From Bacteroidaceae bacterium (GTDB lineage Bacteria; Bacteroidota; Bacteroidia; Bacteroidales; Bacteroidaceae): a stretch of 64,000 nt of DNA. Location: assembly GCA_024401215.1 (NCBI GenBank), contig JAKSLL010000003.1, forward strand, positions 4,389 through 68,388. Reading direction: 5' to 3'. The translations under genes and the position numbers were made by a program. This document shows, piece by piece, positions 15,651 through 61,533 of the stretch; position 1 is the first letter of the stretch; every line of letters starts with the position of its first letter. The notes beneath the pieces are model-generated. The model saw nothing but the letters and a program-made list of their open reading frames with translations. It was not told where the DNA came from and made no database searches.

Positions 15651-15664
15651 CAAAGAAACAGCAA

Positions 15665-16417: not shown

Positions 16418-16435
16418 GATAAGTAAGGAGGAGAA

Positions 16436-16585: not shown

Positions 16586-16613
16586 ATTGAAAATACCTAA
16601 TGACAAAACATTT

Positions 16614-45876: not shown

Positions 45877-46169
45877 ACATGCTGTCGTTGAGGTCTATTC
45901 ACTTAGTCTTTGTTTAAACAAACTTAGTCCTGTAAACTTTACAATTACCATAATACAATTATAGAAGAAAGCAAATCTGACAATTTCGACCAAAAGAAAA
46001 CCTTAATCTTTGCTCGCTATATTTAATTTGTTGGGCTACCAATGGATCTGTTTTCTTATGTTTTCTGAAAAATGCAGCTTCAAATGTGGTTTTTGGAGAT
46101 TTGTTTGCCAAAATTGGCGGTCGTAGTGCATATTTTAAGTAGTTGTGACTCTGATATGATGAAAATATG

Positions 46170-46177
46170 TACATTTG
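46170..46177 (+). promoter_or_regulatory. -7 promoter box TACATTTG, about 410 nt upstream of the first island gene
   Basis: Exact TAnnTTTG match. No convincing gene lies between it and the ATG at 46589. Confidence 0.4.
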
Positions 46178-46588
46178 CAACGTCGTGCCTACGCCGTGCC
46201 ATCTAATAGGATGTGCGGCTGGGTGGGACACTACATAATGTAAAAGCGTCATCGATGCTTTGTTCTATGGCTGTTTGAAACGTGAGAAATTTCAATGTGA
46301 TAGTCAGGAACAATGTCAGAAGTGGCTGCTACGGGTATGCTATAACTGTATCCCGGGGTGTGCTGTGAAGGTATATTATATATCTTCATGCACACTTTTC
46401 CTGGATACGTGCATTTATACCAGGCGTAGGCAGACACTCTACAAGTTCACTATCACGGGTATTCTCACGACCTCAAACAGCGGACAAGTAGAGGTGGAAG
46501 CCTACGTTTTGCGTTTATGTGGTCTATAAAACAGAAGACTATAACTCGCCTGAACTTGGGTCTCATAGGGTGGAAAACATTTAATATT

Positions 46589-47263
46589 ATGAAAGCATTA
46601 AAGGTTATGCTTTTTGTGGTTTTGGCAACGTTTAGCATGGGGGCATACGCCCAAAACTCAAAGGAAATCACTAAGGAGCGTAGAGAAATTCGCAAGTTAT
46701 CTAAGGCAGAATTTAATGAAAAGGCATCAAAGGATGCTCGTAAAGAAGCTAAACGTCTCACGAAAGAAGGTTGGCAAGCAGCTCCAGGCGCTCTTCCAAT
46801 GGAAAAGCAACTTGATAAATCTTATCTTATGCAGCAAGAGTATGATGAAGACTTGTTCCCTAAGTATCTCATGGGCGAAGCTATGAGCATCGGAGAGAAT
46901 TATGATGCAGCAAAAATGCAAGCTCTTGAACTTGCAAAGCAAAATCTTGCTGGTCAAATTCAGACAGAGGTTACTGCTCTTATTGAGAACACGGTTGCAA
47001 ACAAACAATTACAACCAGAGGAGGCTGCAAGCGTAGTGCAGAGTGTAAGTGCTGGTAAGAACTTGATTTCTCAAAGTATTGGTCGAGTCCTTACTGTGGT
47101 AGAAGTGTATCGCACAGTCAGCAACAAGAACAAGGAAGTTCTTGTGCGTATAGCTTACAATGCAGAAATGGCAAAGGCTGCTGCTAAACAAGCAGTACGA
47201 GAAGATCTTGAAAAGAAGGGTGAAGATTTACATAACAAATTGGACAAACTTCTTGATTGGTAA
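46589..47263 (+). CDS. exported helical protein, LPP20-like
   Basis: Start set at MKALKVMLFVVLATFSMGAYAQ. K/E-rich helices. AAKMQALELAKQNLAGQIQTEVTALIENTV resembles the LPP20-family core (recall-based, weak). Confidence 0.55.
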   Translation: MKALKVMLFVVLATFSMGAYAQNSKEITKERREIRKLSKAEFNEKASKDARKEAKRLTKEGWQAAPGALPMEKQLDKSYLMQQEYDEDLFPKYLMGEAMSIGENYDAAKMQALELAKQNLAGQIQTEVTALIENTVANKQLQPEEAASVVQSVSAGKNLISQSIGRVLTVVEVYRTVSNKNKEVLVRIAYNAEMAKAAAKQAVREDLEKKGEDLHNKLDKLLDW

Positions 47264-47335
47264 AATCCTAGTAAAATATTGAGATTTAAGAAGTTCTACA
47301 AAGTATGAATTTCTTAAATCTCTGTGTTCTATTCA

Positions 47336-47343
47336 TATGTTTG
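47336..47343 (+). promoter_or_regulatory. -7 promoter box TATGTTTG
   Basis: TAnnTTTG match 36 nt upstream of the ATG at 47379. It overlaps the track ORF's upstream ATG at 47337, which supports the shorter start. Confidence 0.4.
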
Positions 47344-47378
47344 ATGCGTTAGTTAAATTAATAATACACTCGGAACAG

Positions 47379-48131
47379 ATGAAAATAATTATAACGGTCT
47401 TGTTGGTATTTGTATCTGTTGTGCAATGTTATGCACAGCAAGCGGTTGACGTCTACACTGCAGCAAGAGCAGGAAATGTTGAGGCACAAAAGGATCTTGG
47501 CCTCTTGAAAATTCAGGAAGGTAACTATCCTGAAGCTATGTCGTGGTTAAGAAAAGCAGCGGAAAAGGGAAATGCGGATGCACAATTTAACTTGGCTGTC
47601 ATGTATAGGGATGGAGAAGGCTGTCATGTAGATTATTCGCAAGCTTTGATTTGGTTTGAAAAAGCCGCAAATAATATACATCCTCGAGCCGATGCATATG
47701 GTGCAATTGGACAAATGTATCAGAATGGATTTGGTGTGGCACGAGATCTTTCTAAAGCAAAAATCTGTTATGAAAAAGGAGCGAATATGGGAAGCTCGTT
47801 TTCGATGCTTTGCTTGTTTAGGATATATAGAGATGTTGGGGATTTGGATAATGCTTTTGTGTGGGCAAAGAAAGCTGCAGATGCAGGAGATGAGGAAGCT
47901 GCCTTTAAGGTATATGTGTTTTTGAAAGACAAAGATTTGAAGACTGCTATGAAATATCTTAAGAAATCAGCAGATGGAGGAAATGCTATTGCAATGTTTT
48001 GGTATGGATACAGACAAATGTTTGGCGAAGGTGTAACAAGAAATGAAGATGCTGGATACGAATTAATTAGAAAAGCTGCCGTAATGGGCAGTGAAGATGC
48101 ATTGGATTTTTTGTCAAAGTATAAAAAATAG
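47379..48131 (+). CDS. exported Sel1-repeat protein
   Basis: Signal MKIIITVLLVFVSVVQCYAQ. Repeated A.KGNA.AQ..L..MY..G.GV..D...A..W..KAA units. Confidence 0.8.
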   Translation: MKIIITVLLVFVSVVQCYAQQAVDVYTAARAGNVEAQKDLGLLKIQEGNYPEAMSWLRKAAEKGNADAQFNLAVMYRDGEGCHVDYSQALIWFEKAANNIHPRADAYGAIGQMYQNGFGVARDLSKAKICYEKGANMGSSFSMLCLFRIYRDVGDLDNAFVWAKKAADAGDEEAAFKVYVFLKDKDLKTAMKYLKKSADGGNAIAMFWYGYRQMFGEGVTRNEDAGYELIRKAAVMGSEDALDFLSKYKK

Positions 48132-48139
48132 ACTTTTTA

Positions 48140-49810
48140 ATGAAACAATATATCGTAACATTTATAGTCCTTTTATCTCATTTGCTCTGTTTTGGGCAGT
48201 CATCAGATCCTATTATTAAAGGAATGGAGAGATCTGCATTAGAAGGAAATGTTTCTGCGCAACGTACTCTTGGAAACTGCTATTATTATGGAACAATGGG
48301 GTGCAGTAAAAACATGGATAAAGCAAAGCATTATTATCAGCTTGCTGCGAATCAAGGTGACACAGAAGCAGAATACATGCTCGCCAGAATATTAAGAACA
48401 ATAGGATTGAAGACACAAGATGAAGCCAAAATATATTTTGGACATCTTCAATCTGCTGCTGATAAAGGTTATGTTCCTGCGCAATATGGTGTAGGAATGG
48501 AATTATTGAATGCGAATATGCCTGAGGCATATAAATACCTTAAGCTTGCTGTTGATAATGGAAATAAAGATGCATTTTACCCTTTAGGGATATGTTACAT
48601 GGAGGGATTAGGATGTTCTGTAGATTACACAACTGCCATATTATACTTCAAGAAAGGTCAAGAGACTGTACCTGAAAATGTCTTTGTCATGGATATGGCT
48701 CAATGCTATGTGAAACTTAATGACGTTATAAACGCAAAACCTTATCTTGAAAAAGGAATCGCATTTGGAATACCTACTGCATATCAAGTTCTTGCAATAA
48801 TGTTAACAAATGGAGAAGGGGTAAATAAAGATTCGAAAGAGGCTCTTCGTCTCATAAATATTGCCATAAGCAAAGACCCAACAAATCCCGAATATAAAGA
48901 TACGAAGGGAAGTATACTGATGGATTTAAGTAGATTTGATGAAGCCCAAGAACTTTGGAACGAGCTTGTGCGTGAACATAAAGAATATGCTTATTCAAAA
49001 GAATGGGGATTTTGCTCTTATATGCGTAAGATTGCTGATGGAAACGTGGATATGGATATATTTCAAACAGAAGAGGAAAACGCAAATACCTACGTCATTA
49101 TAATAGCAAACGAAAACTATCGGCGTGAAGAAACCGTTCCATATGCACTGAATGACGGAAATATATTTAAACTGTATTGCCAAAAGACATTAGGCATTCC
49201 AGAAAAAAATATCAATTATCTACCTGATGCAACTTTCAACGATATAAGATACAGTATTAATTGGTTGGAGAAAATAACATCTGCAAGCAGTGATTCTAAA
49301 ATAATATTCTATTACGCAGGTCATGGAGTTCCCAACGATGATCTGTCAACGTCGTATCTATTACCAACAGATGGATATGGATCCGATGTGCAAACAGGTT
49401 ATGATTTAAAGGAACTATACAAAAAGCTTGAGAATGTAAGGGCCGATCAAATCATCGTTATTTTAGATGCATGTTTTAGTGGCGCAAAACGAGATGGTGG
49501 AATGTTGGTAAGTTCTCGTGGTGTGGCAATAAAAGCAAAGCAAAGTGAACCATTGCACAATATGGTGGTATTGTCTGCTGCTCAGAATAATGAAACAGCC
49601 TATCCGTATAAGAATCAGAAACATGGAATGTTTACATACTATATCTTAAAAAAATTACAAGAGAGTAAGGGTAATACCACGATTGGCGATTTGTTTAGTT
49701 ATGTTAACTCTCAGGTTTCCAAACAGTCCGTTCTCGAAAACGGAAAGTCACAAACTCCGACTTTAATGTCTGGGGCAGGTCTTGACTGGCATAAGTTAAA
49801 ATTAAAATAA
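48140..49810 (+). CDS. exported Sel1/TPR-repeat - caspase-like (C14-type) cysteine peptidase, paralogue 1
   Basis: Signal MKQYIVTFIVLLSHLLCFGQ. Sel1 repeats. C-terminal domain YVIIIANENYRREETVPYALNDG...IIFYYAGHGVPND...LLPTDGYG...IVILDACFSGAKRDG...VLSAAQNNETA (His and Cys dyad intact). Ends DWHKLKLK. Confidence 0.8.
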   Translation: MKQYIVTFIVLLSHLLCFGQSSDPIIKGMERSALEGNVSAQRTLGNCYYYGTMGCSKNMDKAKHYYQLAANQGDTEAEYMLARILRTIGLKTQDEAKIYFGHLQSAADKGYVPAQYGVGMELLNANMPEAYKYLKLAVDNGNKDAFYPLGICYMEGLGCSVDYTTAILYFKKGQETVPENVFVMDMAQCYVKLNDVINAKPYLEKGIAFGIPTAYQVLAIMLTNGEGVNKDSKEALRLINIAISKDPTNPEYKDTKGSILMDLSRFDEAQELWNELVREHKEYAYSKEWGFCSYMRKIADGNVDMDIFQTEEENANTYVIIIANENYRREETVPYALNDGNIFKLYCQKTLGIPEKNINYLPDATFNDIRYSINWLEKITSASSDSKIIFYYAGHGVPNDDLSTSYLLPTDGYGSDVQTGYDLKELYKKLENVRADQIIVILDACFSGAKRDGGMLVSSRGVAIKAKQSEPLHNMVVLSAAQNNETAYPYKNQKHGMFTYYILKKLQESKGNTTIGDLFSYVNSQVSKQSVLENGKSQTPTLMSGAGLDWHKLKLK

Positions 49811-49827
49811 GATTTTTAATAGTAACT

Positions 49828-50697
49828 ATGAGATTTTATATATTAATAATATGCCTGTTTGTATGGTGTACGATAGTTAAAGCTCAGCAAACAAAGAGGG
49901 TAGAGAATACGTATGTTTATAGAGCGTCGGAAGACATATCGATAGAGCATGCAAAAAGAATTGCTTTAGAAAGAGCTCAAGTGGAAATAATAGCAAATAC
50001 CTTTGGCACGAACATTTTGCAGCAGAACTCAACTCGTGTCAGCAATAGTAATGGCAAAAGCAATGTTGATTTCCTCAGCATCTCGTCAAGTGATGTCAAA
50101 GGAGAATGGATAGAAACCATTGGTGAACCGCAATACATAATAAACTATGAACAGGGGATGCTTATTGTCACTTGCAAAGTGAAAGGTACTATTCGTGAGA
50201 TTACCACTGCTGCTATTGACCTAAAAGCAAAGGTGTTGCGCAATGGAACAGAGGACCGTTTTGAATCTTCTGAGTTCCGTTCTGGTGATGATCTGTACCT
50301 ATCCTTCCAAAGTCCTGTTGATGGCTATCTTGCAGTCTATTTGCTTGACGAAGAAGGCAATGCTTTCTGTCTGTTGCCTTATCGAAATCAGTCAGATGGT
50401 ATTTATAAGATACATGCGAATACCCCTTATATCTTTTTCTCCGTGAAGGATGCACCTCTGCAAGAGCGTAGCCTTATAGATGAGTATGTGATGACTTGCG
50501 AAAAAGCACAGGAAGTAAATTATGTATATACAATCTTCTCTCCAAATCCCTTTATCAAATCTATTGACAAAGATAATGGTGAAGCTTTACCAAGAGAAAC
50601 AGATGGCGAGTCATTTCAGAAATGGCTGGCTAAGGTTAGGAGAAAGGATAATAGTGTGAATTTCAGTTCTAAACAAATAACAATAACAAAAGAATAA
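49828..50697 (+). CDS. exported DUF4384-like protein
   Basis: Signal MRFYILIICLFVWCTIVKAQ. The C-terminal half FRSGDDLYLSFQSPVDGYLAVYLLDEEGNAFCLLPY fits the DUF4384 pattern as recalled. Confidence 0.6.
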   Translation: MRFYILIICLFVWCTIVKAQQTKRVENTYVYRASEDISIEHAKRIALERAQVEIIANTFGTNILQQNSTRVSNSNGKSNVDFLSISSSDVKGEWIETIGEPQYIINYEQGMLIVTCKVKGTIREITTAAIDLKAKVLRNGTEDRFESSEFRSGDDLYLSFQSPVDGYLAVYLLDEEGNAFCLLPYRNQSDGIYKIHANTPYIFFSVKDAPLQERSLIDEYVMTCEKAQEVNYVYTIFSPNPFIKSIDKDNGEALPRETDGESFQKWLAKVRRKDNSVNFSSKQITITKE

Positions 50698-50701
50698 CAT
50701 T

Positions 50702-51613
50702 ATGAAATTAAACAAAATACTTATAGTCATTTTTTCATTGCTTACTTCGTTTGTATCGTATGCCCAGATGATGGAACTCACTCCTGCACAGCAGCCTGGA
50801 CAAGCAGAAATAAACAAAGCAATGGAATACTATGAGAAGCATGATATGAAACAGGCTATATACTGGTTTGAGCAAGCTGCACAAAAAGGTAACAAGGATG
50901 CCCAAACAATGGTAGCTGGAGCTTATCTTGATGGTATGCCTGGTGTTGAAGTGAATCCTCAAAAAGCTGCCTATTGGTGTGAGAAGTCAGCAAACAATGG
51001 AGATCCAATAGGACAATTGTTGTATGGTTATTGCTTTGCTAGAGGAGAAGGAAAGCCACACGATATGCAACAGGCAATTTCTTGGTGGAAGAAATCTGCA
51101 GCACAGAATTATGTTCATGCTCAATGGAATTTATGTATATGTTATACTTCAGGGGATGGAGTGTCTGCAGATGCTACGCAAGCAGCAATTTGGGCTCGAA
51201 AAGCAGCTGAAAACGGACATGCACAAGCTCAATATCAGTTAGCTTACTATTACGCCCATGGAGAAGGTGTTGCAAGAAACTATTCCCTCGCAGTTCAATG
51301 GTATCAAAGATCAGCGAATCAGGGATATGATTGGGCATACAATAATTTAGCATATTTGTATGCTGACGGACAGGGCGTTGCAAAGGATTTTAGAAAAGCA
51401 CATGAAATGGTAGATATGGCAATTTCAATAAGTCCAAACGAGCCAAGTTTTCTTGATTCAAAAGGCGAATTGTACCTAAAGGAGGGTAATATGAATAAAG
51501 CAACTGAGATTTGGAACCTTCTAAAAAGTCGTTTCCCAGAGAAAGTGCGCCAGTCTGTAAACGATCCAAATGATATATTTTGTGCAACAATGTTAAAACG
51601 TGAAAAAAGGTAA
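50702..51613 (+). CDS. exported Sel1/TPR-repeat protein (caspase-less sensor-arm paralogue)
   Basis: Signal MKLNKILIVIFSLLTSFVSYAQ. Six or so Sel1 units plus a TPR-like tail colinear with the N-terminal arms of the Sel1-caspase proteins. The stop falls where the protease domain would begin. Confidence 0.8.
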   Translation: MKLNKILIVIFSLLTSFVSYAQMMELTPAQQPGQAEINKAMEYYEKHDMKQAIYWFEQAAQKGNKDAQTMVAGAYLDGMPGVEVNPQKAAYWCEKSANNGDPIGQLLYGYCFARGEGKPHDMQQAISWWKKSAAQNYVHAQWNLCICYTSGDGVSADATQAAIWARKAAENGHAQAQYQLAYYYAHGEGVARNYSLAVQWYQRSANQGYDWAYNNLAYLYADGQGVAKDFRKAHEMVDMAISISPNEPSFLDSKGELYLKEGNMNKATEIWNLLKSRFPEKVRQSVNDPNDIFCATMLKREKR

Positions 51614-51616
51614 GTT

Positions 51617-52363
51617 ATGAGAAAGATATTATTTTTATTATTGGTATTAGCCAATAGTTTAGTTTCATTTGCACAAACTGGAGAACAGTTTGGAAGAATG
51701 GCAAGAGAAGCTGAGAAAAAGGGTAATATATCACAAGCTATAACTTACTACGAAAAGGCAATAAATGCAGGAGAACGCAAGATTGCTCCAAACAACCTTG
51801 CTTGTATATATATAGAAGGGAAAGGTGTGACTACGGATTATAAGAAAGCAGCATATTACTATAAGATGGCTGCAGAAAATGGTCACGATGATGCACAGTG
51901 CATGTTAGCTACTCTATATCATAATGGACTTGGAGTACAGCCAAACGACACCGAGGCTTTAAAGTGGTACACAAAATCTGCGCAACAAGGTAATAGCGAA
52001 GGACAATATTGTTTAGGTATGGCTTATTACAATGGGGAGGGAACTGCTTCAAATCATTCTCAATCCGTACAGTGGTGGTTGAAAGCAGCGAAACAGGGGC
52101 ATCCAAATGCTCAAAACAATCTAGCTCAGTGTTATCTTAATGGAGATGGCGTCTCTCAAAATGTATCAGAAGGATTAAAGTGGACGCGTGAAGCAGCAAA
52201 CAATGGAAATAAAGATGCACAATGCGCTTTAGGAAGTTATTATGAGTATGGGGTGCCAGGAATACAGAAAGATGTTAATCAGGCTATCTTTTGGTATAAG
52301 AAAGCTGCTGCACAAGGAGTTACATATGCCCAAATCCATCTTGCACAATTAGGCATCGAATAG
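51617..52363 (+). CDS. exported Sel1-repeat protein
   Basis: Signal MRKILFLLLVLANSLVSFAQ. Regular Sel1 units (AAENGHDDAQCMLATLYHNGLGVQPNDTEALKWYTKSAQQGNSEGQ...). Confidence 0.8.
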   Translation: MRKILFLLLVLANSLVSFAQTGEQFGRMAREAEKKGNISQAITYYEKAINAGERKIAPNNLACIYIEGKGVTTDYKKAAYYYKMAAENGHDDAQCMLATLYHNGLGVQPNDTEALKWYTKSAQQGNSEGQYCLGMAYYNGEGTASNHSQSVQWWLKAAKQGHPNAQNNLAQCYLNGDGVSQNVSEGLKWTREAANNGNKDAQCALGSYYEYGVPGIQKDVNQAIFWYKKAAAQGVTYAQIHLAQLGIE

Positions 52364-52369
52364 CATTAT

Positions 52370-53923
52370 ATGAAAAGAATATTAAGTACAATCGTTATTG
52401 CATTATTTACCTTATGCGCAAATGCCCAATTATCTCAGGTTATTTTAAGCGCAGAAAAGGGAGATATTGATGCACAGAAATTCCTAGCGCGTAGTTATTC
52501 CCAAGGAATAAATGGTGTTAGGAAAAATGACGTACAAGCTTTTATTTGGACAAAAGCTGTTGCTGAACAAGGAGATGGAGAATATGAATATATTCTTTCA
52601 CAACTGTATTGGAATGGTATAGGTACGTCAAAAGACAGTAACGCCATGATGGAATGGATGGAAAGATCTGCAAATCATGGATATGCTCCCGCAATGGAGA
52701 ATCTTGGATATCTAAACTTTATGGGTGGTCATTATGAAAAGGCTATTCCTTTATTGAAGGGTGCTTTAGAGAAAGGTGACGTAGCTGCTAATTATATGTT
52801 AGGTAAAGCCTATTTAAATGGGAATGGTGTCGAACAAAATTACACTAAAGCTTTTCAGCACTTAAATGCAGCTGTACAAGCTGAAATTGTTCCTGCCTAT
52901 AAGGAATTAGCTTATTGCTACGCTTATGGTCATGGGGTAAGACAGAACTTCAAGGAAGCTCATAGACTAATAGATTCTGCGCATGATAAACAGCCAAACA
53001 ATCTAGAGTTCTATGATGATAAGGGAACATTTTACCTCATGGAGGGTAAGTTTGATATGGCAAAAAAAATATGGGAAAAACTATTAAATAAAGATAGCCT
53101 TTACCCGGAAATGTATCATACAATGTTTACTGCTGCTATGACAAATAGCATTGACTATAATATCCCAGTTGCATCAAAATCAAATGACAAGACTGTTGTA
53201 CTTATCATAGCCAATGAACACTATAGAAGGGTTTCTCCTGTTGTCTATGCAAATAGTGACGGACAGACCATGTACAAATATTGCACTTCTGCATTGGGTA
53301 TACCTGAACGAAATATCATCTATGTCGAAGATGCGACATTGGCTGACATGAAGTATAATGTTGAGTCTATTAAGCAAAGAATCGGCGGGTTTAATGGAGA
53401 TTGCAATGTTATATGCTATTATGCTGGACATGGAATCCCTGATCAAAACGCAAAAACTGCGTTTCTGCTTCCAGTAGACAGCTATGGCACAGATACCTCT
53501 ACTGGATATCCTTTAGAAGACTTTTACAAGTCACTGAGTGAATTACCAGCAAAGTCCGTCACCGTATTACTTGATGCTTGTTTTAGTGGTGCGAAAAGAG
53601 AAGGCGATATGTTGGTAGCTGCTCGTGGAGTTGCTATAAAAGTGAAAGATACAACACCTAAAGGAAATTTGATTGTATTATCAGCAGCACAAGGAGATGA
53701 AACCGCATATCCTTTTGAAAATCAAAAACACGGTTTGTTTACATACTATCTTCTCCGCAAACTGCAAGAGACAAAAGGAGAAGCTACTATAGGCGAGATA
53801 GCAGAGTATGTGAAATCTGAAGTGTCCACAAAATCATTAGAGTTGAAAGGAAAACCCCAAACTCCAAACATAGCAGTTTCACCTGCTATGGAATATATGT
53901 GGAAGAATATGAAGTTGAAATAA
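52370..53923 (+). CDS. exported Sel1/TPR-repeat - caspase-like cysteine peptidase, paralogue 2
   Basis: Signal MKRILSTIVIALFTLCANAQ. VVLIIANEHYRR...NSDG...VICYYAGHGIPDQ...LLPVDSYG...VLLDACFSGAKREG...LSAAQGDETA. Ends YMWKNMKLK. Confidence 0.8.
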   Translation: MKRILSTIVIALFTLCANAQLSQVILSAEKGDIDAQKFLARSYSQGINGVRKNDVQAFIWTKAVAEQGDGEYEYILSQLYWNGIGTSKDSNAMMEWMERSANHGYAPAMENLGYLNFMGGHYEKAIPLLKGALEKGDVAANYMLGKAYLNGNGVEQNYTKAFQHLNAAVQAEIVPAYKELAYCYAYGHGVRQNFKEAHRLIDSAHDKQPNNLEFYDDKGTFYLMEGKFDMAKKIWEKLLNKDSLYPEMYHTMFTAAMTNSIDYNIPVASKSNDKTVVLIIANEHYRRVSPVVYANSDGQTMYKYCTSALGIPERNIIYVEDATLADMKYNVESIKQRIGGFNGDCNVICYYAGHGIPDQNAKTAFLLPVDSYGTDTSTGYPLEDFYKSLSELPAKSVTVLLDACFSGAKREGDMLVAARGVAIKVKDTTPKGNLIVLSAAQGDETAYPFENQKHGLFTYYLLRKLQETKGEATIGEIAEYVKSEVSTKSLELKGKPQTPNIAVSPAMEYMWKNMKLK

Positions 53924-53955
53924 AGATATGCAATCGTATAGAATAAGAAAGTTTC

Positions 53956-54100
53956 TTTCATCAAATCAAATGACAAAGACAATGGTGATGCTTTGCCAAG
54001 AGAAACCGATGGCGAGTCATTTCTAAAATGGCTGGCAAAGGTTAGGAGAAAAGATAATAGTGTGAATGTCAGTTCTAAACAAATAATAATAAACAAATAA
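53956..54100 (+). pseudogene. 3'-terminal remnant of a second DUF4384-like gene
   Basis: Aligns by eye with 50550..50697, with most positions identical. It reads FIKSNDKDNGDALPRETDGESFLKWLAKVRRKDNSVNVSSKQIIINK* versus FIKSIDKDNGEALPRETDGESFQKWLAKVRRKDNSVNFSSKQITITKE*. An in-frame TAG lies just upstream and there is no start. Confidence 0.8.
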
Positions 54101-54110
54101 CAAAAAGGTA

Positions 54111-54755
54111 GTGGTAAATTATCAGATCGCAACAAGGTCAATAGTAGGAAAGACTTATTTGAAAGTATTTCTTGCAAATACCGCAAACATCAAGTTGATA
54201 CAGTCGATATTGAAGAGATTGGATTCTGTCAGTGTCGTCAATGTCACGGATTCAAAGAATGGCAAGAACCTGACGGTGTACAAGGAACATGGGCATGCTA
54301 TCGCCAATGTAAGATCAGAAGTCAAAGAGGCATTGGATGATTTCTTCAAGGGAATATCGAAAGGTAATTATTCTGTGTACAACAAAACGCTCTTCAGCAG
54401 ATTGAATGCAGACCATCCTGATGTTGGAGCATTGGTTATGTCGGGTTTTAAGCATGCTAATAATGAAGCAGAATACAGACATGCCTTGGATGATTTCCGT
54501 CTTGCTATAGAACTTCTACTGAAAAAGATTCTTGGTAATGAAAAATCTTTAGAGAATCAGAGGGAGTTTTTGCTTCCATATATGGCAGAGAAAGGAATTT
54601 CTGTTGAAATTAGGAACGTTTTTTTCAAACTTCTGGATACATTCTGTAAATATCAGAATACTAATGTAAAGCACGGAAATAGTGTAAATAACATGGACTT
54701 AGGCATAATGATAGATTACTCGGTGTTCTTTATCAAAACATTGTTGTCGTTTTGA
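54111..54755 (+). CDS. hypothetical cytoplasmic protein, C-terminal HEPN/DUF4145-like helical domain (tentative)
   Basis: No signal peptide. GTG start in the track, and the first in-frame ATG is far downstream. The C-terminal half ALDDFRLAIELLLKKILGNEKSLENQREFLLPYMAEKGISVEIRNVFFKLLDTFCKYQNTNVKHGNSV... has the helix layout of DUF4145/HEPN domains, with a degenerate R-x4-6-H (QNTNVKH). Confidence 0.4.
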   Translation: MVNYQIATRSIVGKTYLKVFLANTANIKLIQSILKRLDSVSVVNVTDSKNGKNLTVYKEHGHAIANVRSEVKEALDDFFKGISKGNYSVYNKTLFSRLNADHPDVGALVMSGFKHANNEAEYRHALDDFRLAIELLLKKILGNEKSLENQREFLLPYMAEKGISVEIRNVFFKLLDTFCKYQNTNVKHGNSVNNMDLGIMIDYSVFFIKTLLSF

Positions 54756-54797
54756 AATTACATAAACACTATTGCTAATAATTAATATGCATACAAT

Positions 54798-56555
54798 ATG
54801 AAACGTTATATTCTTCTCTTCTTAATTACTTTCATGGCTCTTAATTCATTTGGACAATCGTCAACAGATGCTTTTTACAGGAAAGGTATGGCTTATTACA
54901 ATTGTCAAGAATACGATAAAGCGTTTACGTTTTTTGAAAAAGCAGCAAGCATGGGTCATGCAGATGGGATGATGATGTTAGGCTATTGTTATCGTGAAGG
55001 AATTGGTACCCCACAAGACAACTCACAAGCATTTCTGTGGATAAGAAAGGCAGCAGAAAAAGATAACGCTCCTGCTTGTGCTTTATTAGGTGACTGTTAT
55101 ACTTTTGGTGATGGTGTTCAGGTAAATCCTACTCAAGCTTACATTTGGTATAAAAAAGCAGCAGAGAAAGGACATGCTAATGCTTGCTTCCAATTGGCAC
55201 AATGTTACCATGAAGGGTATGGGGTCTCAAAAGATTATAGCCAAGCGTTTCTATGGATAAAAAAAGCGGCTGAAAAAGACGTAATCCCAGCATATTCTAT
55301 GTTAGCCACATGCTATGGTAAAGGAGAAGGTGTCGCTAGAAATTATTCGCAAGCTTTTTATTGGTACCAAAAGGGAACAGAACAAGGAGATGTCTTGTCT
55401 TATGTTATGGTGGCAAAACTTTATTTTTTAGGATTAGGCGTGGAGCAAAATTATTCAAAGGCTATATTTTGGTTGAATAAGGCTGCAGAACAGGATAATG
55501 TCACGGCTTTAAATGAGTTAGCCTTAATGTATGCTAAAGGTCAAGGTGTCTCGCGTGATTATACAAAAGCATATAGTTTGATAGACCGAGCCATCGCAAA
55601 GGCCACAAAAGATGGAAAGTTTTTTTATTTAGATACAAAAGGAGAAATAGCATTGATGGCTGGTGATCAAAAACTTGCGCAAGATATTTGGAAAGAATTT
55701 AAAAGTGAGTATCCTGATAAGGTAAACGAATTCTCTAGCAGAGATGAAAATGTTTTTGTAAAAACAATGCTTAAGGGACTCGACGATATTGACAATATGA
55801 TTCCAATTACGAACATAGAGTCACCCAACACTTTTGCATTTATCATCGCTAATGAAGCGTATAAGCGCATTTCTCAAGTTCCATACGCAAAGAACGATGG
55901 CGAGATCTTTGCAGAGTACTGCAAGAAGACCTTAGGGCTGCCAGATAATAATGTTAAAATCTGGACTGACGCAACACTGGGTGATATGCAATATGCTATT
56001 TCCAAAATTAAACAGATTGCTGATGCGTATGAGAAAGATGCTAACATAATCTTATATTATGCAGGTCATGGCATACCATCTGATGACCAACAGAATTCTT
56101 ACTTGCTCCCTGTAGATGGATATGGTGCGGCAGAATCAAGTATATCTTTGCATAATCTCTATAAGACATTAGGGGAATTGGATGTGAAATCTGTGTTCGT
56201 TATCCTTGATGCTTGTTTCAGTGGCGCTCAACGTAACGGTGAAATGTTTGCTTCGACACGAGGGGTTGCAATCAAACCAAAACAAGAATCCACAGAGGGC
56301 AAGTTGATTGTATTGTCTGCAGCACAAGGTGATGAAACAGCAATGCCATACAACGATAAGGAGCATGGATTGTTCTCATATTTCCTTTTGAAGAAGCTAC
56401 AGGAAAGCAAAGGTGACTGCACTATTGGTGAATTGGCAGACTACGTCACAACGAATGTTAAAAGAACATCTATAACTATTGGTGACAAGATGCAAACCCC
56501 AAAGGTTTCTGCATCTTCCACGATGGGAGATTGGAGAAATATAAAACTGAAATAG
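54798..56555 (+). CDS. exported Sel1/TPR-repeat - caspase-like cysteine peptidase, paralogue 3
   Basis: Signal MKRYILLFLITFMALNSFGQ. About 7 Sel1 units. FAFIIANEAYKR...KNDG...IILYYAGHGIPSDD...LLPVDGYG...VILDACFSGAQRNG...LSAAQGDETA. Ends GDWRNIKLK. Confidence 0.8.
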   Translation: MKRYILLFLITFMALNSFGQSSTDAFYRKGMAYYNCQEYDKAFTFFEKAASMGHADGMMMLGYCYREGIGTPQDNSQAFLWIRKAAEKDNAPACALLGDCYTFGDGVQVNPTQAYIWYKKAAEKGHANACFQLAQCYHEGYGVSKDYSQAFLWIKKAAEKDVIPAYSMLATCYGKGEGVARNYSQAFYWYQKGTEQGDVLSYVMVAKLYFLGLGVEQNYSKAIFWLNKAAEQDNVTALNELALMYAKGQGVSRDYTKAYSLIDRAIAKATKDGKFFYLDTKGEIALMAGDQKLAQDIWKEFKSEYPDKVNEFSSRDENVFVKTMLKGLDDIDNMIPITNIESPNTFAFIIANEAYKRISQVPYAKNDGEIFAEYCKKTLGLPDNNVKIWTDATLGDMQYAISKIKQIADAYEKDANIILYYAGHGIPSDDQQNSYLLPVDGYGAAESSISLHNLYKTLGELDVKSVFVILDACFSGAQRNGEMFASTRGVAIKPKQESTEGKLIVLSAAQGDETAMPYNDKEHGLFSYFLLKKLQESKGDCTIGELADYVTTNVKRTSITIGDKMQTPKVSASSTMGDWRNIKLK

Positions 56556-56565
56556 TAATATTACA

Positions 56566-57582
56566 ATGAATACAAGGTTTTTCATTCTTTTAATTTTTAT
56601 AATAACAGGATTTTTAACTATCTCAGCGCAGAATATCACAAATGTGGAGTTCGAGCAAAATGGCAAGAATGTAAAGATAAGCTATGAGCTTGATAAGCAG
56701 GCAGATGTTCAAGTCGCTGTAAGCACCGATGGGGGCAAGACCTACTCAGTACCTTTGACTCATGTCACTGGTGGCGTAGGCAAGGGTGTCGCTCCTGGCA
56801 AGAACACCATTATTTGGGATGTGCTATCTGAACGTGAAAAACTTGTGGGCGAGAAAATATGTTTCCGTGTGTCAGCAGAGAGCGGTAAGCAAAGCTTCAC
56901 CGTAAAAGGTGTGACGTTCGATATGATTAGAGTAGATGGTGGCAAATTCACAATGGGTGCGACATCAGAGCAAGGGAATGATGCCCAGAGTGATGAAAAG
57001 CCTGCTCACAATGTGACTCTCAACAGTTACTACATAGGCAAGACCGAAGTGACTCAGGAACTGTGGCAGGCAGTGATGGGCAGTAATCCTTCACATTTCA
57101 AAGGCAGCAAAAAGCCTGTGGAGAATGTCAGCTGGGATGACTGCCAGAAGTTCATATCAAAGCTTAACTCACTCACAGGCAAGCGCTTCCGCCTGCCTAC
57201 AGAGGCAGAGTGGGAGTTTGCTGCCCGAGGCGGCACAAAGAGCCGAGGCTATAAGTACAGCGGAAGTGATAACATTTTTTCTGTCGCGTGGTACACAGAC
57301 AATTCTGGCGGAACCACCCATGAAGTCGCTCAGAAGGTATCCAACGAGCTTGGCATCTACGACATGAGCGGCAATGTGTATGAGTGGTGTCAAGACTGGT
57401 ATGGCAGTTACAGCAGCAGTTCACAGACGAATCCTACTGGTCCAGCCAGTGGGTCTTACCGCGTGTACCGTGGTGGTAGCTGGAGCAGCAACGCGTGGAA
57501 TTGTCGCTCGGCGAATCGTTTCAAGGACTCGCCTGGCTACGGGGGCTACATCCTTGGGCTCCGCTTGTCCCTCTCCGAGTAA
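56566..57582 (+). CDS. exported Ig-like - FGE-sulfatase (SUMF1/EgtB/PvdO-type) domain protein
   Basis: Signal MNTRFFILLIFIITGFLTISAQ. FGE-like core GGKFTMGAT...DEKPAHNVTLNSYYIGKTEVTQELWQAVMG...NVSWDDCQKFISKLN...FRLPTEAEWEFAARGG...YDMSGNVYEWCQDWY...YRVYRGGSW. Confidence 0.8.
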   Translation: MNTRFFILLIFIITGFLTISAQNITNVEFEQNGKNVKISYELDKQADVQVAVSTDGGKTYSVPLTHVTGGVGKGVAPGKNTIIWDVLSEREKLVGEKICFRVSAESGKQSFTVKGVTFDMIRVDGGKFTMGATSEQGNDAQSDEKPAHNVTLNSYYIGKTEVTQELWQAVMGSNPSHFKGSKKPVENVSWDDCQKFISKLNSLTGKRFRLPTEAEWEFAARGGTKSRGYKYSGSDNIFSVAWYTDNSGGTTHEVAQKVSNELGIYDMSGNVYEWCQDWYGSYSSSSQTNPTGPASGSYRVYRGGSWSSNAWNCRSANRFKDSPGYGGYILGLRLSLSE

Positions 57583-57635
57583 CAACCCGATATTTGATCG
57601 TCCACTTCTATCATGAAGTTCTAAGAAAGACATGA

Positions 57636-57705
57636 GATATAGTTGTTAATGGTCAAAAAGAGAGGTGAGGGACGAACCTCGGGAAAGACCATTAACAACT
57701 ATATC
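57636..57705. repeat. 19-bp perfect inverted repeat with a 32-nt loop
   Basis: gatatagttgttaatggtc (57636-57654) and gaccattaacaactatatc (57687-57705). The loop contains a smaller hairpin, gaggt..acctc. No T-run follows. Confidence 0.85.
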
Positions 57706-57759
57706 GAATAAGAAAAACCGGCGAAGTAGGTTTCGATATTTTAGATGTTAGATTGTAAT

Positions 57760-57930
57760 ATGCAAATAAAGATATATAATATCCCAATTGGGGCAGACGA
57801 GAGTCAGTTGGAAGAGATGAATCATTTTCTACGTTCCAATAAGATTATAGATATAAAGAAAGATTTAGCTCTGACTGATGGTAACAGCTGTTGGACATTC
57901 TGCAGCATTGTAACAGATAATAAAAAGTAA
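57760..57930 (+). CDS. small hypothetical protein (56 aa, no signal peptide)
   Basis: MQIKIYNIPIGADESQLEEMNHFLRSNKIIDIKKDLALTDGNSCWTFCSIVTDNKK. Its coding status is uncertain. Confidence 0.35.
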   Translation: MQIKIYNIPIGADESQLEEMNHFLRSNKIIDIKKDLALTDGNSCWTFCSIVTDNKK

Positions 57931-57944
57931 ATAAATATACGGAT

Positions 57945-59603
57945 ATGAAGAAACAATTCTTTACTCTTTGTACAGCATCGCTCAGCATGATAGCGATGGC
58001 GCAGTCTTCAGGTGTTTCAAAAATAGGATCCTTGAATATACAAAAAGAAGTTAAGCCGGCCGTCATCAATCTTGTGGAGGGTTCAGTTCGCTTTGAAGAC
58101 GCTACGGCTAATAATGCCATTGATGCCAACGAGACGTGCTATATCTTCATGAAAGTGAGGAACGATGGAAAAGGCGAAGGATTAGGATGTAAGGTACGCC
58201 TCCGCATGACAGGCCGTACTACCGGTATCACATATAGCGACATTTCGCTTCCATCCATTTCTGTAGGCGCAGAAAAGGATGTTAGAATTCCTGTTACGGC
58301 AGGCATGAATACACAGGATGGACAGGTGAATGCTATCTTTTATGTTGAAGAGCCTAATGGATTCGGAACTGACGAAATACAGATGACCATCAATACGAAG
58401 GCTTTCGTTTCACCGATGCTGAAGATTGTGGACTATGCCGTAACAGGGTCAAATGGTTCTACATTAGAGAAGAAGAAGCCTTTTGACTTGCAGTTAGTTC
58501 TCCAGAACACACAGCATGGTGTGGCGGAGGATGTGATAGTAAATGTAAAATTCCCAGACAATGTCTTTGCTATTGAAGGCGATGATTCAAAGTCGTATCA
58601 TACGATGAAGGGAGGAGAAGCTCATTCGCTTGATTATCAACTTATAGTAAATAATAACTACACGGCAAGCACTATTCCTGTAGAGGTGAGCATACGTGAG
58701 AAACACGGGAAATATGCGGAAAATCGTACCATCAATCTCCAGCTTAACCAAGCACTTGCCTCAACAAAAATTGCTGTTGATGAAATTGCCGTGCAGCGTG
58801 ATGAAATACAGATAGCCCAAATAGGAAGTGATGTGGACAGGAACATTCCACAAGTGACAATAAAGAACGAACATTCCTTCGCGGTGATTATCGCCAACGA
58901 AAACTATCAGACAGTGGAGTCCGTGCCTTATGCTCGTAACGATGGAAACGTGTTTGCGCAGTATTGTCGACAAACTCTTGGATTGCCAGAGTCAAACATT
59001 CATCTTGTGACAGATGCCACACTCAACAATATGCGCTCTCAATTGGATTGGATTAAAGAAGTGTCAAAGGCATACAACGGAAATGCAAAGATAATATTGT
59101 ACTATGCAGGCCATGGCATTCCTGATGAACAGACTAAGTCTTCATACTTGTTACCTGTTGATGGCATTGGAAACAACACTTCCTCAGCCTATAAACTTGA
59201 TGAACTCTATGCTTCATTGGGTAATATACAGGCAAAGTGTGTTACAGTCTTTTTGGATGCATGTTTTAGTGGCAGTAAGCGTGAGAGCGGCATGCTTGCT
59301 TCAGCGCGTGGTGTGGCGATTAAAGCAAAGGCTGGTTCAGTAAGTGGTAATATGGTAGTTTTCTCCGCAGCCCAAGGAGATGAGACAGCCTATCCCAACA
59401 AGGGTGAAGGGCACGGCATGTTTACCTACTATCTGCTGAAGAAACTGCAGGAGACAAATGGTGACTGCACCCTCGGTGAACTGTCGGAATACATTACTAC
59501 AAATGTTTCGCAGAAATCTATTGTACTCAATAGCAAATCGCAGACTCCTACTGTGAGTGCAGCAAGTGGTCTGAGCGATTGGAGAAATATAAAACTGAAG
59601 TAA
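57945..59603 (+). CDS. exported Ig/CARDB-like - caspase-like cysteine peptidase, paralogue 4
   Basis: Signal MKKQFFTLCTASLSMIAMAQ. Two beta-rich modules of about 100 aa replace the Sel1 repeats. FAVIIANENYQT...RNDG...IILYYAGHGIPDEQ...LLPVDGIG...VFLDACFSGSKRES...FSAAQGDETA. Ends SDWRNIKLK. Confidence 0.8.
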   Translation: MKKQFFTLCTASLSMIAMAQSSGVSKIGSLNIQKEVKPAVINLVEGSVRFEDATANNAIDANETCYIFMKVRNDGKGEGLGCKVRLRMTGRTTGITYSDISLPSISVGAEKDVRIPVTAGMNTQDGQVNAIFYVEEPNGFGTDEIQMTINTKAFVSPMLKIVDYAVTGSNGSTLEKKKPFDLQLVLQNTQHGVAEDVIVNVKFPDNVFAIEGDDSKSYHTMKGGEAHSLDYQLIVNNNYTASTIPVEVSIREKHGKYAENRTINLQLNQALASTKIAVDEIAVQRDEIQIAQIGSDVDRNIPQVTIKNEHSFAVIIANENYQTVESVPYARNDGNVFAQYCRQTLGLPESNIHLVTDATLNNMRSQLDWIKEVSKAYNGNAKIILYYAGHGIPDEQTKSSYLLPVDGIGNNTSSAYKLDELYASLGNIQAKCVTVFLDACFSGSKRESGMLASARGVAIKAKAGSVSGNMVVFSAAQGDETAYPNKGEGHGMFTYYLLKKLQETNGDCTLGELSEYITTNVSQKSIVLNSKSQTPTVSAASGLSDWRNIKLK

Positions 59604-59664
59604 GCAAAAGGTTGTATTCTTCAAACTATCACTATTTATGGTTTTTCTTTAATTTGAAAATGAT

Positions 59665-61161
59665 ATGACAAGAAATTTCCTTACATTAGCATTTCTATTG
59701 CTATCAGTATCTATGTCCGCTCAGAACTCTGCAATAGCTCAATATAATCAGTTTAAGCAGCAAGCACTTCAAGATTATGCCGACTTTAGAAAGAAATGTA
59801 ATGCTGAATATGCAGAGTTTCTCAGGCAGTCGTGGGTTTCTTATGAGGCTGGACCGATAGTTTCTGTACCTAAGGAGGATGAAAAACCGCCTGTCGTAAT
59901 AAAGGATGAGGATAAGAAACGTCCAATAGAAGACACTCCTGTCATCATTGATGAAGAGATAGACATTCCAGCTCCAACACCTCAGCCAAAACCGATTTCG
60001 CCTATCAAGGAGAAAGAAGGAGAAGTAGATAGGCATTCTTTTGCATTGTATGGAACGGATATGTCGGTACGTCTTGTTCCTTCTCAAAAAATCATACTTC
60101 CGAAACTTGACGTCAATGAAATTGCAAAAACATGGGAGGTGTTATCCTCTGACAATTACAATAATGTCATCAGGGATTGTCTTGAACTTAGAATAAAGCA
60201 TCAGCTTTGTGATTGGGCATATTTGAGACTGCTCGACAAGTTGTCTTCTTCATTCCTTGGTGAAGGTACAAATGAAGCAGAGTTGTTTAAGGCATTTCTG
60301 TATTGTCAATCTGGTTATCAAATGAGGCTGGCGATTGCAAATGGTCGTTTATATATGCTTTATGCAAGTCAACATTTTATATTTGACAAACCTTGTTGGA
60401 AGATTGATAACACATTTTATTATGCAGACAACTGTGATGCAGAGCAGATTAAAATATGTGAGGCATCCTTCCCCCATGAACAAGCAATGTCATTATATAT
60501 TCCGAATGAACAAAAACTTGATCCAGTAAAAAGCGACATTAGAACCTTGCAGTCAGAGGATGTTAACTGGTTAAGAATTGATGTGTCTGAAGATGAGAAT
60601 ATAATAAAATTCTGTAATGATTACCCAACTTCTTGCATTGGAGATAATTTCATGACTCGTTGGGCAATGTATGCCAATATGCCATTGAACAACAGTACAA
60701 AAGAGCAGCTTTATCCTCAGTTTAAGGCATTCTTTGATGCGCTAAAACGGAGTTTTGAAGAAGATGGTACGGATATGCGGAATTACACTCCTGCTTGTGT
60801 TGATTTGATTTGCCATTGGATTCAGACCGCATTTGTGTATGAGTATGATGACAAAGTCTGGGGAGGTGACAGAGCCTTCTTCGCAGATGAAACATTGTAT
60901 TATCCTTATTGCGATTGCGAAGACCGCAGCATTCTGCTCACTCGAATGGTAAGAGACCTGCTTGGTCTTAAATGTGCTCTGGTCTATTACCCAGGACATC
61001 TTGCTACTGCTGTCGCATTGGGAGAAGATATAAAGGGTGATTTCATTAGAATCAATGGCACAAAATATTTGGTATGTGACCCTACATATATTGGCGCTCC
61101 TATTGGCAAGACAATGCCTGATATGGATAATCAGAGTGCAAAAGTTATAGTCCTGAATTGA
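59665..61161 (+). CDS. exported protein with a transglutaminase-like Cys-His-Asp core
   Basis: Signal MTRNFLTLAFLLLSVSMSAQ. C-terminal YYPYCDCEDRSILLTRMVRDLLGLKCALVYYPGHLATAV...TKYLVCDPTY fits the C...H...D order of the transglutaminase-like cysteine peptidase superfamily. Confidence 0.6.
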   Translation: MTRNFLTLAFLLLSVSMSAQNSAIAQYNQFKQQALQDYADFRKKCNAEYAEFLRQSWVSYEAGPIVSVPKEDEKPPVVIKDEDKKRPIEDTPVIIDEEIDIPAPTPQPKPISPIKEKEGEVDRHSFALYGTDMSVRLVPSQKIILPKLDVNEIAKTWEVLSSDNYNNVIRDCLELRIKHQLCDWAYLRLLDKLSSSFLGEGTNEAELFKAFLYCQSGYQMRLAIANGRLYMLYASQHFIFDKPCWKIDNTFYYADNCDAEQIKICEASFPHEQAMSLYIPNEQKLDPVKSDIRTLQSEDVNWLRIDVSEDENIIKFCNDYPTSCIGDNFMTRWAMYANMPLNNSTKEQLYPQFKAFFDALKRSFEEDGTDMRNYTPACVDLICHWIQTAFVYEYDDKVWGGDRAFFADETLYYPYCDCEDRSILLTRMVRDLLGLKCALVYYPGHLATAVALGEDIKGDFIRINGTKYLVCDPTYIGAPIGKTMPDMDNQSAKVIVLN

Positions 61162-61533
61162 TTATTACAAAATATTGTATAAGTAACCTTGGTGACCTTT
61201 TTACCTTGGTGGCATGGGCGCTATATACATTGTATTCTTGAATAAGTCTGTATCGTTTTCGTTAGTTTTGTGCTTTTTGTACCGGGCTATGAATAATGTA
61301 GGCTTAATATAAAAATGATATAGATAGGTTTGATGTTCGTCCTAACAAGATTGACATCAGGACAAACAAATCCGCTGACTTTCATTAGTGTTGCCGATTA
61401 TCAGGGGAGTTTTCTACCATGAAATTTCCTATCTATCTTCATTTTTATTGGCTTTTATTTTGTCAATACATTTTTTCTATATATTTTTGTATTGTAATTG
61501 AGGGCGTGTTGATAAATCACCTTTTTGAAAAAT

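Follow-up and report, generated by a model that had tools for sequence, protein, structure and literature searches.

An expanded Bacteroidales gene cluster of exported caspase-like peptidases preceded by a conserved structured leader RNA, a candidate attenuator

A 64,000-nucleotide stretch of a Bacteroidaceae genome (GenBank assembly GCA_024401215.1, contig JAKSLL010000003.1), referred to here as the window, carries a cluster of 13 co-directional open reading frames (ORFs) at positions 46589-61161, labelled A to M. On balance, and with modest confidence, we favour the reading that this locus is a lineage-expanded version of a conserved Bacteroidales operon encoding an attenuator-controlled module for proteolysis outside the cytoplasm, likely in the periplasm. 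Four of the ORFs encode caspase-type peptidases with intact catalytic residues, all products but two begin with export signals, a five-gene core recurs around related caspases in other Bacteroidales, and a structured leader RNA conserved with the module precedes the first gene. An earlier note on this DNA had described a co-transcribed-looking set of exported proteins around caspase-type peptidases and binding modules. That description stands; the note had overlooked the strongest regulatory feature of the locus, a conserved, structured leader RNA that separates the -7 box from ORF A.

A Conserved Module and Its Local Expansion

The 13 ORFs share one strand and are mostly closely packed, the small gaps being 8, 17, 4, 3, 6, 10 and 14 nt, which confirms the coordinates and the 3-17-nt spacing reported earlier (Table 1). 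The core caspase is encoded by ORF L. The L-type family comprises more than 7,900 clusters at 90% identity, and at least 547 GTDB species genomes contain a relative, almost all of them Bacteroidales, with carriers in Paludibacteraceae, Prevotella/Segatella, Alistipes and Cryptobacteroides. Gene neighbourhoods were compared at 80 loci around L-type caspases (given below as L numbers), counting genes on the same strand within 6 kb. The most frequent caspase partner is J, present at 45 of the 80 loci and often in several copies. It is followed by D (29 loci, plus a divergent D-like family in 12 more), A (19 loci) and M (15 loci); at least one of these four stands beside the caspase at 59 loci. 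A compact 7-kb version of the A-D-J-caspase-M module has been found in close relatives such as L006 (A-D-J-L-J-M), L079 (A-D-(Sel1-caspase)-M), L086 (A-D-caspase-DUF4468-M) and L087 (A-D-J-L-(J+TonB_C)-TonB_C-M).

In the window, B and C are inserted into this skeleton between A and D, and E, F, G, H and I between D and J. The local additions are three standalone Sel1 proteins, three Sel1-caspases with low G+C at third codon positions (GC3), a gene resembling the defence candidate PDC-S32 and a remnant ORF. Standalone Sel1 genes occur at none of the other loci among the 80. The locus is a lineage-specific expansion of a conserved Bacteroidales A-DUF4384-FGE-sulfatase-caspase-M module. Expansion is recurrent but lineage-specific, affecting J in L007 (seven FGE-sulfatase paralogues, two caspases) and the caspases in L039 (five, with other N-terminal domains). 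A separate association was observed around more distant L-type caspases, where a lipoprotein of about 149 aa with an FN3-like domain (L083, 8018-8467) adjoins the caspase gene at 29 of the 80 loci; it has no counterpart in the window.

Caspase-Like Peptidases and Predicted Specificity

Domains were assigned with Pfam profiles. The ORFs starting at 48140, 52370, 54798 and 57945 (C, G, I and L) had been described as caspase-like with intact motifs, and this is borne out: all four proteins match Peptidase_C14 (PF00656) at 75.4-86.6 bits (cut-off 21.4), pairwise identity over their C-terminal ~250 aa is 50-56%, and each retains YAGHG (catalytic His) and DACFSG (catalytic Cys). The reported N-terminal architecture, Sel1 repeats in three and an Ig/CARDB fusion in the fourth, also agrees with Pfam. 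Sel1 (PF08238) scores above its cut-off in ORFs B, C, E, F, G and I (68-201 bits vs 30.7), and ORF L matches CARDB only marginally (24.3 vs 22.7 bits). Read from the sequences, the standalone Sel1 protein E has the same C-terminal linker motif as the Sel1-caspases, and a short tail, W-x-N-x-K-L-K, is conserved at the caspase C-termini. Across the family, the N-terminal modules interchange among CARDB, Sel1 and LRR. A metagenome scan with the Sel1-caspase ORF I matched almost exclusively generic Sel1 proteins.

A 12-sequence profile of the caspase domain, searched against the PDB, matched yeast metacaspase-1 (E = 5e-5) and MALT1 (E = 1e-4). The catalytic His and Cys and two acidic residues are invariant in these 12 diverse domains. 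Invariant D33 (in NDG) aligns with MALT1 D365 (APLVD) and with the Asp of the metacaspase NDA motif (CINDA); invariant D138 (in DACFSG), two residues before the catalytic Cys, aligns with MALT1 D462 (LLDMC) and with the Asp of metacaspase FDSCHSG. In those enzymes, MALT1 D365 and D462 and their metacaspase equivalents are the acidic residues of the S1 pocket. Because both are invariant, the domains are predicted to be of the metacaspase/paracaspase type and to cleave after Arg or Lys, not Asp.

Export and Expected Location

Signal peptides were read by eye using the Bacteroidetes 'Q-rule' (a hydrophobic leader with Gln at +1), named for the Gln that follows signal-peptidase-I cleavage (PMC5837995; PMC10653852). 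The earlier count of 11 Sec leaders ending in A/G-Q among 13 products was reproduced, with only ORFs H and K lacking one; the exported set thus has 11 members, and H and K are unrelated cytoplasmic passengers within what had been treated as a single set. Under a crude hydrophobic-N-terminus rule, 57/58 caspase, 55/55 J, 12/12 A and 14/16 M homologues are positive. The window products, read in sequence, have no lipobox Cys. The Pfam matches of every product were also free of a C-terminal domain of the T9SS (type IX secretion system; Por_Secre_tail or CTD family), and T9SS cargo was rejected as an identity. Q-rule leaders with neither a lipobox Cys nor a T9SS domain point to the periplasm or the lumen of outer-membrane vesicles, and by these sequence features the module proteins are most likely periplasmic.

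Fusions among relatives also point to the envelope. A J relative is fused to TonB_C and A relatives are, rarely, fused to PEGA; Sel1 and PEGA have been viewed as peptidoglycan-associating domains (PMC7159879), which points the same way. In L087, the second FGE-sulfatase gene of the module carries the TonB_C fusion (14289-15950) and is followed by a separate TonB_C protein (16028-16705). This arrangement suggests a possible connection with TonB-dependent processes, or contact with peptidoglycan or the outer membrane.

Gingipains and PorU (family C25) are exported Bacteroidota peptidases of clan CD, and gingipains are Arg/Lys-specific. The window caspases belong to the same clan and phylum but to family C14, and they have no T9SS C-terminal domain, so they are probably retained in the periplasm. 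A possible reading is that, in Bacteroidales without gingipains, Arg/Lys-specific exported caspases take over the role that Arg-gingipains have in Porphyromonas, in maturing the cell's own surface structures, for example by cleaving pilin or adhesin precursors, with the other genes serving as chaperones or adaptors. The predicted basic P1 specificity, the export and wide Bacteroidales distribution of the family, the clan CD precedent of gingipains in type V pilus maturation and of PorU, and a structural match of ORF M to LapG, a periplasmic protease that cleaves adhesins, all suit this idea. We consider it improbable: pilin, adhesin or T9SS genes do not recur beside the module in the 80 loci, and the proposal is a sub-case of periplasmic proteolysis and not a distinct mechanism.

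Partner Proteins

ORF A is the usual first gene of the module. It has 5,838 homologues (870 clusters at 50% identity), none carrying a Pfam domain, and is 76-94% identical across many genomes. The LPP20-like label given to it earlier found no support. None of 15 family members match LPP20 (PF02169) in Pfam at E <= 0.1, two PDB profile searches gave no support, with no match at E <= 10 for a 38-sequence profile, alignment by hhalign to an authentic LPP20 lipoprotein, encoded on a Sulfurimonas plasmid, had a probability of 0.3%, and cleavage of the leader leaves Gln, not a lipobox Cys. The two proteins have only a short motif in common, A-x-x-A-x-x-x-L-A-x-Q-I, and an AlphaFold2 (AF2) model of ORF A was unusable (pLDDT 44). 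The Sulfurimonas protein is of separate note: on Sulfurimonas aquatica plasmid pSULFM1 (L134, 4730-9733), a caspase gene is followed with a 4-nt overlap by this LPP20-family gene (Pfam E = 4.9e-8), in surroundings rich in toxin-antitoxin and Fic genes. Caspase-LPP20 gene pairing therefore exists outside Bacteroidota.

The two domain labels given earlier to ORFs D and J were upheld by Pfam. DUF4384 (PF14326) in ORF D is marginal at 28.6 vs 27 bits, and a precomputed match exists in the L002 orthologue as well. Homology of ORF A to the N-terminus of ORF D was rejected, hhalign having aligned the signal peptides only. In type III-E systems, the substrate of the caspase-like protease is Csx30, one group of which ends in a DUF4384 domain; by this analogy, ORF D may be a docking partner or substrate of the caspases. 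ORF J matches FGE-sulfatase/SUMF1 (PF03781) at 162.3 vs 23.3 bits. It falls below the cut-offs of the GldK/PorK (83 vs 350 bits), PvdO (81 vs 500) and EgtB (64 vs 360) models. It shares the FGE-sulfatase fold only and is none of functional FGE, GldK/PorK, PvdO or EgtB. Targeting of ORF J by a diversity-generating retroelement (DGR) was rejected, as no second copy of its 3' 350 nt (a template repeat) was found anywhere in the window.

At least 5,877 proteins are homologous to ORF M, none of them annotated; one belongs to Bacteroides sp. AN502. Foldseek matched an AF2 model built with 20 homologues (pLDDT 78) best to transglutaminase-like proteins, namely the putative Cys proteases 3isr and 3kd4, the periplasmic protease LapG, and PNGase (E~1e-3, probability 0.8-1.0), and C418, H445 and D472 are invariant across 20 homologues. 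Transglut_core (PF01841) is absent from ORF M itself by Pfam and weak in 4 of 12 homologues (best E 0.0024). The transglutaminase-like assignment proposed earlier is carried by the modelled fold and the Cys-His-Asp triad, without a Pfam match in the window protein, and ORF M is a probable transglutaminase-like hydrolase. With its Cys-His-Asp triad, its export signal and a probable transglutaminase-like fold it is comparable to LapG, one of its best structural matches; the match is weak (E 3e-3 to 8e-2, TM 0.4-0.5 on target). LapD and LapA are absent here, and ORF M has a long N-terminal helix, a Pro-rich, TonB-like spacer and an extra domain.

A non-catalytic role has also been weighed, in which the proteins form a periplasmic scaffold comparable to the FGE-sulfatase-fold ring protein PorK/GldK and the caspase domains act as binding modules. 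ORF J does match the GldK, GldJ and PvdO models, below cut-off, and FGE-sulfatase folds are used structurally in Bacteroidota; the spacer of ORF M and the TonB_C and PEGA fusions among relatives would fit as well. Pseudo-enzymes usually lose their catalytic residues. Here the His, the Cys and both pocket Asp are invariant in 12 diverse caspase domains, as is the triad of ORF M in 20 homologues, and a scaffold is accordingly very unlikely.

The Leader RNA

Both TAnnTTTG -7 boxes reported earlier (46170 and 47336) are present by pattern match; a sigma-70 promoter scan is uninformative for Bacteroidota. Relatives show DNA-level conservation of the 420 nt from the first box to the ATG of ORF A. 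A six-copy profile (nhmmer) recovered the leader in 18 further distinct loci, 19 in all, and a TAnnTTTG box lies at the equivalent site upstream in most of the 19 aligned loci. Copies include L079 6326-6665, L087 9598-9931, L006 3662-3997, L027 6242-6591, L028 1819-2122, L064 4637-4980, L021 1592-1926, L002 8147-8427, L016 6270-6564 and L066 1629-1866. In at least 15 of the 18 loci the first module gene follows the leader at a distance of 27-500 nt, and the arrangement holds whichever gene leads (A, D, J, a caspase or another exported protein). In L028, L020 and L005/L008 it precedes other exported proteins instead of the caspase module.

The window copy folds at -136.3 kcal/mol (RNAfold, z = -7.7). 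Covariation was counted over the 19 sequences for the long-range helix, the 5' hairpin and the two terminator stems, and compared with 500 shuffles, none of which reached the observed values: 90.9% of cells paired (75.6% shuffled), 110 compensatory double-change cells (33.6 shuffled) and a covariation score of 0.547 (0.256 shuffled). When the 3' partners were slid by 1-3 columns, the score fell to 0.17 or less. One 7-bp segment is paired in 19/19 sequences, with compensatory change at 6 of 7 positions. A second possible helix, between 46187-46195 and the 5' arm of the terminator, is paired in 79.6% of cells vs 32-51% when slid. No Rfam 15 family matched at E <= 1 in 46100-46620 or at the leaders of L027, L002 and L066.

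We infer from this architecture that the leader is a transcription-attenuation element gating the operon, a candidate attenuator or riboswitch-like RNA. Like known attenuation leaders and riboswitches, it is promoter-proximal and structured, ends in a hairpin with a U tract and has an upstream segment complementary to the 5' arm of the terminator. It differs in its unusually large size (300-345 nt) and in a 16-bp helix that crosses the terminator, as well as in the missing Rfam family. Because the long-range helix crosses the terminator stems, it would form either a pseudoknot or an alternative read-through conformation, and since the leader can take alternative long-range pairings, expression would be set by attenuation. 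No TAnnTTTG box was found between the terminator and the ATG of ORF A, and no plus-strand terminator-like site other than the leader's own was found inside 46.5-61.2 kb.

Composition and Origin

A foreign origin had been suggested earlier for most of the cluster on account of low G+C. The low G+C is real (39.1% vs 44.7% for the rest of the window) and most genes are atypical, with GC3 of 0.28-0.35 in ORFs A-G, I and M against 0.50 +/- 0.06 in 25 genes outside. The cluster is nevertheless a mosaic, in which ORFs J (0.54) and L (0.42) are not low and ORF H stands at 0.41. Elsewhere, the GC3 of the module is below that of its flanks in L079, L016, L002 and L013 and equal to it in L006, L012, L027, L021 and L050. 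The flanks of L006 and L079 have nothing in common with the window. A single foreign island was rejected, given that the skeleton is syntenic in many genomes, that J and L have host-like GC3 and that module GC3 equals that of the flanks elsewhere. From the differing flanks and the mixed GC3, the module looks mobile over evolutionary time, this copy being largely atypical, and 'foreign island' looks too simple a description.

Proposed Mechanism and Biological Role

In the favoured reading, that of attenuator-controlled periplasmic proteolysis, transcription would start at the conserved -7 box at 46170 and traverse the ~340-nt leader with its intrinsic terminator, and alternative long-range pairings would set expression by attenuation with signal-dependent read-through. 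The products would be exported via Sec and signal peptidase I, neither as lipoproteins nor as T9SS cargo. The metacaspase-type Cys peptidases would then cut envelope proteins after Arg or Lys, with the N-terminal Ig-like or Sel1 modules selecting their targets. J, D, A and M, which look like obligate partners, might serve as adaptors, substrates, regulators or a second hydrolase, and the added three Sel1-caspases and three Sel1 proteins would widen the recognition repertoire in this genome. The module most likely processes or removes cell-envelope proteins, self or foreign, and does not act in cytoplasmic suicide.

Is the role of the module endogenous, or does it lie in conflict? An endogenous role is favoured by the 76-94% identity of protein A, by the housekeeping genes that surround the module in L002-L005, and by the Ig-like domains of the core caspase, which are nearly as conserved as its catalytic domain (mean pairwise identity 0.55 vs 0.65) and so argue against arms-race diversification of that enzyme. 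A conflict role is favoured by variable paralogue numbers, swapped recognition modules, mobile position, atypical composition and the pairing of FGE-sulfatase (FGS) and caspase domains.

The explicit form of the conflict role is an envelope immunity in which lectin-fold, Sel1 and Ig-like modules capture foreign proteins entering the periplasm, such as phage tail or ejection proteins, bacteriocins or effectors of a T6SS (type VI secretion system), and the caspases and the transglutaminase-like hydrolase destroy them, paralogue expansion broadening the range. In predicted conflict systems, FGS domains are found together with caspase domains, and FGS has been proposed as an invader-binding lectin (PMC8195603). 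The copy numbers of J and caspases vary strongly (as in L007 and L039), the caspase N-terminal modules are swapped, the genomic position differs among relatives, the window copy shows low GC3, as do L079, L016 and L002, and a PDC-S32 candidate gene is nested in the cluster with a PDDEXK_2 gene adjacent. These points are met by others. The caspases match only the generic 'caspase' model of PADLOC-DB 2.0 (1e-11 to 1e-12) and A, D, J and M match none. A known anti-phage defence system was rejected, since PADLOC-DB 2.0 recognised no system and H alone matches a candidate, PDC-S32. The cluster is without an NTPase, TIR or gasdermin partner, as noted earlier, and without effector-associated domains (EADs). 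The Ig-like domains are not hypervariable, protein A is strongly conserved, the surroundings of the module in L002-L005 are housekeeping genes, J lacks a DGR template repeat nearby, and phage genomes gave no match to module homologues; matches on plasmids were distant caspases only (<=31% identity). Envelope immunity is, in our view, possible but somewhat unlikely.

Several points weigh against the favoured reading as well. An accessory or conflict role would suit the patchy distribution, the variable position and the low GC3 seen in some genomes just as well as a housekeeping one. For the leader, the covariation of the antiterminator helix is modest, the long-range helix could be a static pseudoknot rather than a switch, and the whole could instead be a free-standing small RNA that carries a terminator of its own. 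The signal-peptide calls were made by eye and by a crude rule, the P1 specificity is drawn from two aligned residues, and the roles assigned to the partner proteins are guesses.

A more ambitious version can be put forward tentatively, though we think it somewhat unlikely: a widespread, Bacteroidales-specific extracytoplasmic caspase system, periplasmic and Arg/Lys-specific, with swappable recognition modules, with lectin-fold, DUF4384 and transglutaminase-like partners, and with a large riboswitch-like leader that senses an envelope signal, serving envelope surveillance or immunity. The bacterial caspase-like proteases characterised so far, such as those of gasdermin activation and type III-E CRISPR, are cytoplasmic. 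If real, such a system would be without known precedent in two ways, as a caspase-based pathway working outside the cytoplasm and as one coupled to an RNA sensor of its own.

Relation to Known Systems

The closest relatives by domain are the orthocaspases (PF00656, e.g., Microcystis MaOC1; PMC3501461; PMC5756287), which, like the window copies, are single-chain p20-type proteins with a His-Cys dyad and an acidic pocket. Sel1/TPR and FGE-sulfatase are among the commonest domains that co-occur with prokaryotic caspases (PMC3501461; PMC5756287). The window copies differ by their Q-rule signal peptides, by an operon shared with DUF4384, A and a transglutaminase-like protein, and by a dedicated leader; orthocaspase surveys mention possible extracellular forms only, and no such operon or leader (PMC3501461; PMC5756287). 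The Caspase/FGS conflict systems (PMC8195603; PMC7159879) likewise combine a caspase effector with an FGS domain in several paralogues per genome. They are intracellular, regulated by STAND NTPases and often DGR-linked, whereas no NTPase, EAD or local DGR repeat is present here and the module components are exported. Type III-E Craspase (Csx29 with its substrate Csx30) also pairs a caspase-like protease with a partner protein. Csx29 is cytoplasmic, RNA-guided and of CHAT type; in the window there are no Cas genes and D is a separate exported protein.

In the literature, no described function was found for the gene cluster or for periplasmic orthocaspases. The constituent domains are already known. 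New with respect to the searchable literature are the exported five-gene Bacteroidales module, its four-caspase expansion and the covariation-supported leader RNA. Exported caspases in a conserved operon are a feature of thousands of Bacteroidales genomes from gut and rumen, and the five-gene core, with its clear catalytic residues, offers a handle for mutation. The window supplies a natural expanded allele in which four caspases carry different recognition modules. The leader, absent from Rfam and tightly operon-linked, could report the inducing signal directly; should it be a riboswitch or an attenuator that depends on a factor, knowing its trigger would probably show what purpose the proteases serve.

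Passengers and Neighbouring Features

Table 1. Features of the cluster, its leader and its surroundings (window positions).
Feature	Position	Strand	Description
-7 promoter box	46170..46177	+	TACATTTG; TAnnTTTG pattern match
Leader RNA	46178..46521	+	structured, ~340 nt; nhmmer, covariation, RNAfold
5' segment	46187-46195	+	GCCUACGCC; complementary to terminator 5' arm GGCGUAGGC
Leader hairpin	46245-46259	+
Long-range helix	46270-46287 with 46463-46481	+	16 bp; RNAalifold on 19 sequences
Terminator hairpin and U tract	46423-46517	+	U tract 46507-46517
Terminator stems	46423-46431/46500-46508 and 46437-46442/46488-46493	+
ORF A	46589..47263	+	exported, 224 aa; no Pfam family; usual first gene of module, highly conserved
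Second TAnnTTTG box	47336..47343	+	36 nt upstream of likely start of ORF B, a gene specific to this genome
ORF B	47379..48131	+	exported Sel1-repeat protein (Pfam Sel1 107 bits); frame opens at 47337, likely true start 47379
ORF C	48140..49810	+	exported Sel1 + Peptidase_C14 (Pfam)
ORF D	49828..50697	+	exported DUF4384 protein (Pfam 28.6 bits); core module member
ORF E	50702..51613	+	exported Sel1 protein (Pfam Sel1 152 bits)
ORF F	51617..52363	+	exported Sel1 protein (Pfam Sel1 181 bits)
ORF G	52370..53923	+	exported Sel1 + Peptidase_C14 (Pfam)
ORF H	54111..54755	+	cytoplasmic passenger, PDC-S32-like; no Pfam family
ORF I	54798..56555	+	exported Sel1 (6 repeats) + Peptidase_C14
ORF J	56566..57582	+	exported beta-sandwich + FGE-sulfatase (C-type-lectin fold; Pfam 162 bits)
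ORF K	57745..57930	+	61 aa, no Pfam family; probable HRDC-gene remnant
ORF L	57945..59603	+	exported two-Ig-like (CARDB) + Peptidase_C14; conserved core caspase of module
ORF M	59665..61161	+	exported; N-terminal helix, Pro-rich spacer, probable C-terminal transglutaminase-like Cys-His-Asp domain; no Pfam family
PDDEXK_2 gene	61525-62538	+	Rpn/transposase-like nuclease, directly downstream of cluster
Bacteroidales-1 RNA	27039-27254	+	Rfam, suggested 6S RNA, 119 bits

ORF H (214 aa) is nested between two Sel1-caspase genes and has a GC3 of 0.41 vs 0.29-0.32 for its neighbours. It has no signal peptide, and its C-terminal half alone matches the PADLOC candidate PDC-S32 (E = 6.5e-26). By this match it is a candidate for cytoplasmic phage defence, outside the exported module. 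ORF K is 35-44% identical to the N-termini (48 aa) of HRDC proteins of ~156-160 aa and is probably the remnant of an HRDC-domain gene; the genes for these HRDC proteins (L058 5873-6343; L051 265-747) likewise precede an L-type caspase gene, at two distant loci.

The PDDEXK_2 gene beyond ORF M carries about 12 tandem EGRA tetrapeptide repeats near its C-terminus. The Bacteroidales-1 RNA is the sole gathering-level Rfam match in the window. Unrelated to the caspase module, L002 has a sub-threshold TPP riboswitch match (47.2 vs 54.3 bits; 2537-2631, plus strand) upstream of a gene for a TonB-dependent receptor.

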